From Alloascoidea hylecoeti (lineage: Eukaryota): a DNA stretch of 64,000 nucleotides. Made by a program: the position numbers and the translations under genes. The notes under the pieces were generated by a model. It searched no databases and was not told where the DNA came from. It worked only from the letters and a program-made list of their open reading frames with translations. This document shows, piece by piece, positions 14,388 to 18,697 of this stretch (the stretch's first letter is position 1; each line of letters opens with the position of its first letter). The DNA is taken from contig BCKZ01000018.1 of NCBI GenBank assembly GCA_001600815.1, forward strand, positions 401,974-465,973, written 5' to 3'.

Positions 14388-15277
14388 ATGTCAGGTAAGT
14401 AAAAATAAAAAAGGGGGATATATGAAAGAATAGTGATAATTGACCAAAGTGGATGAGTAGGATTTGATTATAATAATGATTACTCTGGAGGACACTCAGG
14501 AGGTGGATTTAACAACGATGGAGGTAGTCAGGAGGCAAGAGTAAGTTAGTTATAAAATGGATTGATTAATTTGTTAGCACGACAATTAACAAGGACGAAA
14601 AGACACAACAAAGACAAAGCTTGACGCCAGTCACCATCAAACAGATCGGCTTAATTCAAATCCACCCAGATAATACATTCGAGCTTGATGGATGTGATAT
14701 TCAGCAGGTTAAGTTTGTCGGAAGTATTTCCACTATCCAGGATGCAGCTACGTCGTTGACATACAAGCTGGAGGACGGGACAGGCAGCATTGAAGCACGC
14801 AAATGGGTCAGCGATGTGGCAGAGGAGGACCAGGAAGAGAGCGGTGCGCCCAAACTTGAGATAAACCGTTACGCGCGGGTCACGGGCAACGTGCGGTCGT
14901 ACCAGGACCGGGTGCAGGTGGTGATCGAGAAGATCGTGCCGGTCGAGGACCACAACGAGGTTCTGTACCATCTGCTGGAGGCCGCCGCGGTGCACGCGGA
15001 ACGCACGCACGCACCCACGGCCGCGTCCCGTGCGTCCCGTGCGCACGACGAGGGCCAGCTGTTTGTGGGCGGCGAGGGCGGCGAGGGCGGCGAGGACGGG
15101 CGGATCGTTGAGTTTCTGCGCAGCGAGCAGGCCTCCGGCAACGGCGAGGTGCACGTGAACGCCATTGCGCGCGGGGTGACGCTGGGGAGCGAGCGGGTGC
15201 TGGCGGTGCTGGAGCGGCTGGTGGAGGCCGGGGAGGTGTACAACACGCTCGATGACTACCACTTTGCTCTAACTTAG
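14388..15277 (+). CDS. RFA2: Replication protein A 32-kDa subunit; exons 14388-14394, 14461-14540 and 14594 or 14603-15277
   Basis: Two GTAAGT introns give MSGFDYNNDYSGGHSGGGF.... The OB fold reads SLTPVTIKQI...YKLEDGTGSIEARKW and DHNEVLYHLLEA, and the C-terminal winged helix ends GEVYNTLDDYHF. Confidence 0.92.
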
Positions 15278-15410: not shown

Positions 15411-17507
15411 ATGGCTTTGCAGAACCTGAAAAACTTCATCCGTCGTGGACGCCAGGCCTATGACAGCCCGTCGACCGTCCTCACCACCGACCCGGTCATG
15501 GGCCTAAACTCCCATTCTCAGATAGATAGTACCGTAGATCAAAGTCAAAATCAATCCCATGCGGACAATCAACCACAGTCTTCGAGTCCCCCTCATCCTA
15601 CTTCGACCACCCCTGTCAAAGAACTTCCTGATACTCCTACTGGTGCTGATTTATATAATGAAGCCGCTAACAGGATAGTACAAGAAGAAGAAGCTAAAAA
15701 ATCGAAAATGCCAACGTATCCGGGTTTAGATAACTATTTACTATTAGATCAAATGGGAGAGTAAGTATTTTGTACTTTTATTTTTCATGAACCTATCTTT
15801 CTAATCAATTTTATCATCTTTTTTTTTAATTTTTTTTTTTTTTTTCATTGCCTTTTCTTAGGGGTGCATTCTCGATTGTTTATCGTGCTCAAGATTTAAC
15901 CACAAAAGAATTTGTGGCGGTAAAAGTTATTAAAAAATATGAAATGGATGCTATTCAGGTATGTTTTTTTGTTTTTTTTATTTATTATCATATTCATTTT
16001 CAAATTCATTATTTTATTTTTGATTTTGTTTATTTTGTTTTTGTTTTTGTTTTTTTTTTTGTTTTTTTTTTAATTTAATTTCTATATTTTGTTTTGATTT
16101 ATGTTCGCTCACATTTATTTATGTTTTAATTTTAAAAAGGCTGAGAAAGTCCTTGGTAGAGAAGGTAAAAGGGCTAGAGAATTGGTTAAGGTTGTTTATA
16201 TTTTTGAAATTTTATTTATATTTGTCTTTTATTAACTTCATCTTTATTCATATTTATTCATATTTATTCATTTTTCTCTCTTCCTTTTATTTTAATCTTT
16301 TATTTTTTTAATCTTTTATTATTTATTGTCATCAAATTACTAAATACTAACATAAAAATGAATATAGAAATCAAGTATCTTAAAAGAAGTAGCAATCATG
16401 AGACAATTACGACATCGAAACATTGTATCATTTTATAGATTTATTGAAGCAAATCAATATTATCATATAATTCAAGAATTAGTACCAGGTGGTGAATTAT
16501 TTCAAGAAATTGTTAGATTAACATATTTTTCTGAAAATTTATCTCGTCATGTAATTAGACAAGTTGGTGAAGCTGTACGTTATTTACATGAAGAAGCAGG
16601 TATTGTTCATCGTGATATAAAACCAGAAAATTTATTATTTTATCCAATTGAATTTAAACCATCAAAAAAGCAAGTTTTCAGAAAAGGTGATGATCCAAGT
16701 CAAAAAGTTGATGAAGGTGAATTTTTACCAGGTATTGGATCTGGTGGAATTGGAATTATAAAATTGGCAGATTTTGGTTTATCAAAACAAGTTTGGGATA
16801 GTAAAACGAAAACTCCATGTGGTACTGTTGGTTATACTGCACCAGAAATTGTTCGAGATGAAAGATATACAAAATCTGTTGATATGTGGGCAATTGGTTG
16901 TGTTTTATATACAATATTATGTGGTTTCCCACCATTTTATGATGAAAATATTGAAACATTAACTGAAAAAGTTGCAAAAGGTCAATATACTTTTTTAAGT
17001 CCATGGTGGGATGATATTAGTAAAGATGCAAAAGATTTAGTATCTCATTTATTAACGGTTGATCCTGATAAAAGATTTACAATTGATGAAATGTTAAATC
17101 ATAAATGGATGAAACAAGGTACTGTTTTAAAAGATAATGCTTCTGATTATAGACAATTAGTTAAACCTTTAGCAAATACTTCAATAAAATCACCTGCAGC
17201 AGTAACATTAAGAGAAATTTTTGATGTTTCAAATGCTGTTCATAGAATGGAAGAAGAAGGTGCATTAAGGAAAGGTGGTGGTAATTTAGGAATGTTAAAT
17301 GAATATGAAGAAGATAGTGATGATGATCATGATGAAGAATTAACAATTCAATTTGAACCAAATTCAAGTCGTTCTCGGGGTCGTGGAAGGAAACCAAGAG
17401 TTTTTGATTTAAGTTTGGATGGTGCAACACTTTTGGAACGACGTAAAAAAAAAAATAATACAATTGATATGAATTTGAATTTTGATGATAATAAATTAAA
17501 AGTGTGA
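15411..17507 (+). CDS. RCK2: MAPK-activated CAMK kinase Rck2/Srk1; exons 15411-15760, 15862-15958, optional 16140-16190, 16368-17507
   Basis: MALQNLKNFIRRG N-terminus, spliced GEGAFSIVY, VAVKVIKK, HRDIKPENLLF, the Rck-specific VDEGEFLPGIGSGGIGIIKLADFGLSK and FDLSLDGATLLERRK. Confidence 0.93.
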
Positions 17508-18697
17508 CGATAATCAATGGATGTTTTCATTTTATACAATTGCAAGTGTTTTAAGACCTTAATCAAGAAGTTAAATTTAGATAAATTTATTCTTGATTGT
17601 TATACGTTATATTTTTCAGTTAATTGATCAATTAATATTAATTAATTTTTTTACCATTTTTTATATATCCTTTATCTATCTTATCATTTATTTTTCATCT
17701 TTTATTATTATTATAATTATTATAAATTGTTTCTAGTGCTTTTTTTGAATTAGTTTATTGTTTATTATATATGAATTTGAAAATGGAAATTTAAACTATT
17801 TAATTTACTACCAATTGAATTTTTTGTATGTATATGTATGAATGCATTTGAACATTTAGTGGCTATGTACGGTACACCAAAACATAGCCTTTATAAGGAA
17901 TGCATATTCATCGAATTTAAATAATAATAATATAATAGTTGTTTATATTTGGTAATTAATTTATGCTGATCTTTTAATTTGAGAAATCGTGTTTGTATTA
18001 GGCTAAGCATTTCTCCGTACCTTATTTCTTAATTTTATTCTATTAAAATAATTAATAAATATTTCTATTTTATAATCATAATTGTGTACTTATACATTCA
18101 ACAAATGGATCGGGGTTTAAGAGATTTGCACCAATAATCAGCATTGTAAATAGTCCAAACTATATTGCAAATGGTTAATCAGTATCCCAATCGGAATAAT
18201 TATTTCAACAGAGTTATATTGTTACAAGTTAAATAGAATAAAGTTTTATTATTTATATTATATTTGGTATGATAATTAATGTCAAATAGAACAAGGATAA
18301 ACCTTAAATAGTTTAATATGTGGGCTATAACAAATTAAAACGATCTACTTGTACTTTAAATTTTTACTTGCACTTATCAAATGTCAAATATTTCAATGAA
18401 TTTTCATCATTGAATTTCATAATTGAATTTCATAATTGAATTTCATAATTGAATCGAGTCGATTCATTAAAATAGAAGTTTACCAAAATAAATAATTAAA
18501 ATTAAAATTTAGTTTTCATTATTCGTTTAAATTTCGTTTTATGTCAAAATTTCCTCTAATTTAGTAAATTATAATATTATATTATTTGAAAATAAAGTTT
18601 TAAAATTATTTAGCACATCATAAAATTATAAAAATTATGGACGAATCTGATTCGCAATTATGTTGAAATAAAAACAAAGAAGACAATAAACAACAAC

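Follow-up and report, generated by a model that had tools for sequence, protein, structure and literature searches.

A putative 17-codon cassette exon in an RCK2/Srk1-type kinase gene of Alloascoidea hylecoeti and its counterparts in other fungi

The window analyzed here is a 64,000-nt stretch of contig BCKZ01000018.1 (assembly GCA_001600815.1) from the budding yeast Alloascoidea hylecoeti. Within it, a protein kinase gene of the CAMK1-RCK family has its N-lobe interrupted by 409 nt of T-rich sequence that holds a short, purine-rich island. The locus raises the question of whether this island is an exon that can be either included or skipped, as a first-pass annotation had proposed, and whether such a choice is shared with other fungi. 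Our best reading, to which we give a probability of roughly 0.7, is that the island is a conserved and ancient cassette exon of the fungal RCK2/Srk1/SrkA/Hrk1 kinases and that the A. hylecoeti gene makes both a 528-aa and a 545-aa form.

The kinase gene and the 51-nt island

The gene lies on the forward strand and is read as four exons, at 15411-15760, 15862-15958, 16140-16190, and 16368-17507. Exon 1 (15411..15760) runs in an open frame from the start codon to a codon split in the Gly-rich loop and carries an N-terminal motif similar to the RCK family consensus. The interval that follows (15761..15861; 101 nt, phase 2, with GT..AG ends) is predicted to be intron 1, since its removal restores the Gly-rich loop. 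Translation of exon 2 (15862..15958) starts in the Gly-rich loop and reaches strand beta3, which carries the catalytic Lys. Exon 4 (16368..17507; 379 codons) runs from helix alphaC to the stop codon and encodes the remaining kinase domain and a C-terminal region in which an SP motif is conserved. It matches Pfam PF00069 (Pkinase) with an E value of 3e-62, and its closest homologues, at 56-59% identity, are Rck2/Srk1 proteins of Yarrowia, Trichomonascus, and Lipomyces. These best matches and the presence of the invariant family columns place the kinase in CAMK1-RCK. In a tree of 41 kinase domains, it groups among the budding-yeast sequences with Komagataella and CUG-clade proteins (support, 99/91), a result that we take as a lineage-level hint only, because the tree was midpoint-rooted and its bootstrap had not settled.

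An RPA2/RFA2-like gene (OB fold, RPA_C) lies upstream at about 14389-15277 (+) and probably contains short introns near 14396 and 14541. GC content in its 3' half is 61-77%, compared with 31% for the genome, and only about 135 nt separate its end from the kinase start codon. Downstream of the kinase, about four copies of a ~13-nt tandem repeat occupy 18400-18455.

Between exons 2 and 4, positions 15959-16367 (409 nt) divide into a 181-nt intron, the 51-nt island, and a 177-nt intron. The island, at 16140-16190, consists of 17 codons (AEKVLGREGKRARELVK) without a stop, is in phase 0 at both ends, and falls between VAVK and LKE. By arithmetic from the coordinates, the predicted products have 528 aa when this exon 3 is skipped and 545 aa when it is included. 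On recomputation, the first-pass annotation proved exact in the island coordinates, the length of the interval, the number of codons, both phases, and the open frame, and the coordinates bear out its statement that inclusion and skipping alike keep the frame. Retention of either flanking intron, on the other hand, leads to an in-frame stop. Intron 2 (15959..16139; 68% T) has a consensus donor, a weak branch-like site at 16107-16112, and an AAG acceptor. Intron 3 (16191..16367) has a nonconsensus donor after an AAG exon end, a consensus branch site at 16345-16351, and a TAG acceptor. The AG at 16138-16139 is the first one downstream of the 15959 donor, and intron 3 contains no AG before 16366.

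Base composition sets the island apart. Purines make up 36 of its 51 nt (71%), versus 27% and 32% in the flanks, and a purine-rich window like it appeared in 0 of 5,000 shuffles of the 409-nt interval, so that the description of a purine-rich island in T-rich surroundings holds. The G content is 35% inside exon 3 and 4-8% in the T-rich flanks.

The encoded peptide was then compared with a profile of 79 distinct orthologue inserts of 17-18 aa, in which Basidiomycota, Pezizomycotina, and budding yeasts were equally weighted. The A. hylecoeti peptide scored 10.6, compared with a shuffle mean of -9.7 (P = 0.0013). Shuffle P values by clade were 0.0013, 0.011, and 0.0068, and the budding-yeast inserts gave the best fit. 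Exon 3 ranked first, in its exact register, of the 196 open 51-nt windows in the interval; the runner-up, at 16107, scored 10.5 and lacks an acceptor. In a null set from 400 kb of the same genome, the score was reached by only 1 of 663 open segments of the form AG-51 nt-GT. The Leu, Gly, Lys/Arg, and Val columns are conserved in the A. hylecoeti peptide, the near-invariant His preceding the Leu is lost, and identity to any single orthologue insert is low. Judged from these comparisons, exon 3 is almost certainly a genuine homologue of the insert exon of its orthologues.

The insert exon and its two forms in other fungi

Of 119 homologues, 64 have a short stretch (15 residues) between the catalytic-Lys motif and LKE, 36 have a long one (30-37 residues), and 19 were unreadable; one of the 36 (P0007) is an intron read-through. 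When the query carried the insert, 105 of 120 basidiomycete homologues were long, 6 were short, 5 had another length, and 4 were unreadable. The models of Lipomyces, Limtongia, Myxozyma, and Dipodascopsis among the listed matches all contain the insert. Two Lipomyces models (P0009 and P0141) are one or two residues longer where exon 3 joins exon 4, which suggests tandem acceptors at this point. A region search with the Trichomonascus insert gave 2 matches among 10 candidates and no further yeast long forms. A profile search recovered insert homologues in the Mucoromycota (Halteromyces, Gongronella, Radiomyces, Mortierella, and Bifiguratus), which argues that the insert predates the Dikarya.

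Comparison of orthologues for a phase-0 microexon, the check proposed in the first-pass annotation, turned up an equivalent exon. Of the 79 loci from a metagenome scan, two, L009 and L010, align along almost the entire query at 49-51% identity and were treated as orthologues. The L009 genomic contig, which by similarity we assign to a Sordariomycete type, has a consensus donor after a Gln codon, a 54-nt phase-0 exon, a nonconsensus inner donor, and an alphaC exon. The A. hylecoeti exon also has the features of the Fusarium graminearum type: it is the third exon, its length is a multiple of 3, its phases are 0/0, and it lies between beta3 and alphaC.

In F. graminearum, skipping of the third exon of srk1 (FGSG_00786), with loss of 17 aa, was confirmed by RT-PCR (Zhao et al. 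2013, PMC3577648), and the accessible part of that report counts srk1 as one of 4 exon-skipping cases among 231 alternatively spliced genes. The RT-PCR primers given there, translated here, correspond to residues just before beta3 and just after alphaC. In the supplement, the skipped exon is given as a 21-nt range, yet the text says 17 aa; this mismatch is probably a typing error in one coordinate.

Pairs of proteins that differ by the insert and have zero substitutions were found in Cryptococcus neoformans (P0217, skipped, 2 contigs; P0326, included, 104 contigs; both Logan only), C. deneoformans (P0213, skipped, 19 contigs; P0318), Cutaneotrichosporon (P0222/P0218), a Suillus cluster (P0356/P0357, both Logan only, with one further 1-residue gap), A. 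fumigatus (P0159/P0162), Aureobasidium (P0151/P0145), Colletotrichum (P0186/P0184), and a JGI set (P0178/P0113); the contig counts are not equal to isoform ratios, and the species names of Logan and JGI proteins were taken from identical or co-clustered named proteins. Since these genes bear introns and the Logan and JGI open reading frames run unbroken on contigs of 2-5 kb, the contigs appear to derive from spliced RNA, which makes the Cryptococcus and Suillus-cluster pairs the most telling. The budding-yeast pairs, from Trichomonascus (P0004/P0131, two RefSeq ids, 551 and 568 aa, on contigs of equal length) and Yarrowia lipolytica (P0123/P0125, 571 and 587 aa), are gene models, and NCBI models may mirror the choices of a gene caller and not transcripts. 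Both forms exist in relatives from the Ascomycota and Basidiomycota. The first-pass annotation had noted filamentous-fungal Srk1 proteins with and without an insert, and the F. graminearum RT-PCR and the pairs from Basidiomycota and early-branching yeasts give stronger evidence for this; its suggestion that the event is old agrees with pairs in two phyla and an insert in Mucoromycota. All three metatranscriptome runs of a single study (80% likeness) gave short unrelated pieces only, with no joints and no contig over 16140-16190.

Elsewhere, one form appears to have been fixed or the exon lost. CUG-clade-type Logan open reading frames have the short form and lie whole on contigs of 8-85 kb, which suggests that they are intronless. 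In P0007 and P0134 (JGI), the models read through one in-frame intron of 48 nt at the site and no exon is present, an independent loss of the exon that left one intron behind. The long form of a Malassezia-like protein (P0402) lies on contigs of up to 100 kb. Rck kinases of Vanderwaltozyma and Naumovozyma (P0435 and P0489/P0538) carry a basic insert of 12-16 residues at the same site, apparently without introns, and this insert either arose independently or represents an inclusion form that became fixed and diverged. A. hylecoeti itself has two paralogues, L002 (G000:C13) and L003 (G000:C1), whose N-lobes lack introns and have a short beta3-alphaC link. Both have long Asn/Ser-rich tails and long, compositionally odd tree branches; they may be retrocopies of a skipped mRNA.

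Splice signals and alternative readings

The splice sites of exon 3 were compared with homology-defined introns in Ras, ubiquitin-conjugating, and proteasome loci of the same genome. Of 41 intron rows, 32 were kept (margin of ≥5 bits) and 9 were dropped, and the comparison of donors and acceptors is a tally by eye. (At G000:C28:178365-179513, two UQ_con-family matches with identical scores lie on opposite strands 0.5 kb apart, reflecting an inverted gene duplication or an assembly artifact.) The donors have a purine at +3 in 31 of 32 cases and G at +5 in 28 of 32. Where a confident donor lacks G at +5, as three do, G occupies -1 and A occupies +3. The acceptors comprise 28 TAG, 2 CAG, 1 AAG, and 1 doubtful GAG, and intron lengths range from 51 to 358 nt, with a median of about 70 nt.

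Against these 32 introns, the cassette has consensus sites on the outside, and its inner donor and AAG acceptor are outliers, in agreement with the weak inner and strong outer signals described earlier. The 16191 donor (T at +3, G at +4, T at +5) has neither the +3 purine nor the +5 G; no confident intron is like it, and one doubtful row is. Each intron flanking exon 3 is longer than 31 of the 32 sampled introns, and the undivided 409 nt would be longer than all 32. The locus thus shows the general features of a cassette exon, namely, weak inner sites, strong outer sites, and long flanking introns. An unsupervised splice-signal survey of 464 kb found consensus donors only weakly enriched and was uninformative for the 16191 donor. 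An RNA structural switch at 15940-16390 was also considered and was rejected because the fold of this region is ordinary (z = +1.31).

Under the cassette reading, the strong outer splice pair would make skipping the default in A. hylecoeti, and we infer that exon 3 is mostly skipped. Inclusion would rely on the AAG exon end, acting as a U5-type donor, and on the purine-rich body, which could bind an SR-type protein. In the donor class described in the accessible text of Parker et al. 2023 (PMC10581693), strong U5 pairing at the exon end offsets weak intron-side pairing, and the AAG end of exon 3 fits this class. It is likely that both in-frame forms are made, and stress regulation of the choice is plausible.

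Besides the outlier donor, the lost His, and the nearly equal score of the 16107 window, two further points weigh against this reading. Additional GT sites, which the first-pass annotation did not mention, occur within exon 3 at 16156 and 16165 (both out of frame) and at 16185 (in frame). The second of these (16165..16170, +) is a competing donor whose use would shorten the exon to 25 nt and bring an early stop in exon 4, and it resembles a real donor of the same genome (L156). With G at -1 and A at +3, it is closer to the donors of this genome than the 16191 donor is. In addition, given the weak inner sites, exon 3 may be included rarely or never.

The alternative that survives best, although we consider it unlikely, is that exon 3 is a decaying relic, homologous to the insert exon but always skipped in the A. 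hylecoeti lineage and heading for loss, as in yeasts that retain the short form alone. Such a relic would account for the outlier donor and acceptor and the divergent peptide, and the kinase does group with Komagataella and CUG-clade proteins, whose models are of the short form; P0007 retains one 48-nt in-frame intron and no exon. However, exon 3 has kept its length, its phase at each end, its open frame, and the conserved Leu, Gly, Lys/Arg, and Val columns, and a long-dead exon would be expected to drift toward the T-rich composition of its flanks, which the G content of exon 3 has not done.

Still less probable is a poison exon, included mainly through the 16165 donor, which would tune the amount of kinase by early termination and mRNA decay. 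The bases around 16165 match those of the three confident donors without G at +5, and the shifted frame meets a stop after 22 codons; yet the similarity to orthologue inserts runs past 16165 to the Val at codon 16, and the orthologues make in-frame long forms. A constitutive small exon, always included and with its weak sites tolerated, ranks slightly lower again. It would be in keeping with the Lipomycetaceae models among the listed matches, all of which include the exon, and with the predominance of long forms among the basidiomycete matches, but it does not sit well with outer sites that are consensus next to the weakest inner sites seen or with skipping in relatives from both phyla. That the island arose by chance in one 409-nt intron and is unrelated to the inserts of other fungi is very improbable: the low identity to any single insert and the nearly equal score of the runner-up window would allow it, but position, length, phase, AG/GT ends, and profile score all coincide, and such an intron would exceed every sampled one in length.

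Predicted consequences for the kinase and relation to known systems

The effect of inclusion on the protein was modeled with the natural Trichomonascus pair, not the A. hylecoeti protein, and the long and short forms used different alignments. In the short-form model, beta3 (102-110) and alphaC (116-131) have pLDDT values above 90. In the long-form model, a low-confidence loop (111-124; pLDDT under 50 at 113-117) precedes an alphaC that spans 125-148. The nearest solved structure by sequence, CaMK1 (PDB 4fg7), has the kinase fold, and its beta3-alphaC length is nearly the same as that of the skipped form, whereas alignment with the long form leaves an 18-residue gap in CaMK1. No fungal RCK kinase was among the 60 solved-structure sequences listed. 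The skipped form would have a compact, CaMK1-like beta3-alphaC link, and the included form would gain a basic, flexible loop and an alphaC longer by about two turns.

The inserts are basic, with mean net charges by clade of +3.4, +0.9, and +1.7. The nuclear localization signal (NLS)-like motif K[KR]x[KR] is present in 53 of the 59 inserts from basidiomycetes, in 5 of the 21 from Pezizomycotina, and in none of the 14 from budding yeasts, and the A. hylecoeti peptide has one match (by eye). A conserved classical monopartite NLS in the exon was rejected, since the motif is mostly limited to the Basidiomycota, and a nuclear-import role shared by the inserts is unsupported because the motif is not conserved across clades. 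A conserved phosphosite is unlikely as well, as only 9 of 21 Pezizomycotina inserts have Ser or Thr in the last 6 residues. In other kinases, the length of the beta3-alphaC loop influences the alphaC-in, active position. This effect suggests a modulatory role for the insert, involving partners, localization, or activation threshold. Inclusion most likely changes one of these properties and would not abolish catalysis. The kinase is Hog1 activated in other species, and the loop may shift its activation threshold.

An SR-protein kinase of F. graminearum is also called Srk1, and we take it to be a different gene from the RCK-type srk1. It is cited in PMC9597501 and PMC12886710, in whose accessible text "srk" occurs in reference lists only. 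"srk" is absent from the accessible text of PMC3925392, PMC5294800, PMC8942408, and PMC12861292, whose supplements may list the event under gene ids. Kinase isoforms are not mentioned in the accessible text of PMC8399174, PMC12232718, or PMC3076434. In that of the last, a report on Hrk1, "exon," "intron," and "splic" do not occur, and AN4483 is absent from two supplementary text files of PMC12232718, which may not cover its data sets. PMC3577648 was the only literature on the exon found in a search of mainly open-access text. The skipping event is already known, from one species (F. graminearum); no report of how widely it extends across Basidiomycota and budding yeasts came up in that search.

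The host-gene family comprises SrkA of Aspergillus nidulans, Srk1 of Schizosaccharomyces pombe, SRK1 of Trichoderma, and Hrk1 of Cryptococcus, described in the accessible text of PMC8399174, PMC12232718, and PMC3076434 as activated by Hog1/SakA. RCK family members undergo stress-induced nuclear entry after this activation (PMC8399174). In Trichoderma, SRK1 is a binding partner of the SR protein SRP1 and has an effect on splicing, according to the accessible part of PMC12232718, so feedback of the kinase on its own purine-rich exon is conceivable. An extended proposal, which we regard as doubtful, is that the exon has remained a cassette alternative at least from the common ancestor of Ascomycota and Basidiomycota onward and forms a feedback loop from Hog1 to Srk1 to an SR protein to Srk1 exon inclusion. 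Such a loop would switch the kinase between two forms that differ in localization or activation, and A. hylecoeti would be a late holder of the switch beside lineages that fixed one form.

Exon skipping that preserves the frame is rare in fungi, and a shared event would count among the oldest cassette exons conserved in fungi. It would be common to mushrooms, Cryptococcus, molds, and early-branching budding yeasts and sits in a central stress kinase, at a site governing alphaC. Studies of SrkA, Srk1, and Hrk1 may have pooled two forms or used only one, and gene models choose the long or the short form. The A. hylecoeti gene adds one more member to the cassette and does not establish the function of the longer form.

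The closest known system is exon 3 of F. graminearum srk1, which agrees with that of A. hylecoeti in kinase family, position as third exon, length of 17 aa, location in the kinase domain, and conservation of the frame (PMC3577648). The A. hylecoeti exon differs in that it belongs to a budding yeast, encodes a divergent peptide, has a far weaker donor, and is predicted to be skipped. The accessible part of the F. graminearum report covers one species and gives no function for the srk1 exon. In being old, frame-preserving fungal alternative splicing, the event also resembles conserved splicing in Saccharomycotina (Hurtig et al. 2020, PMC7491326) and SKI7/HBS1 (PMC3597508), as far as their accessible text describes these. 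Unlike the present gene, the exon-skipping case in PMC7491326 is GND in Yarrowia, and its main text does not contain "rck," "srk," or "kinase." Loss in some yeast lineages and paralogues that fix one form are further features shared with the present gene.
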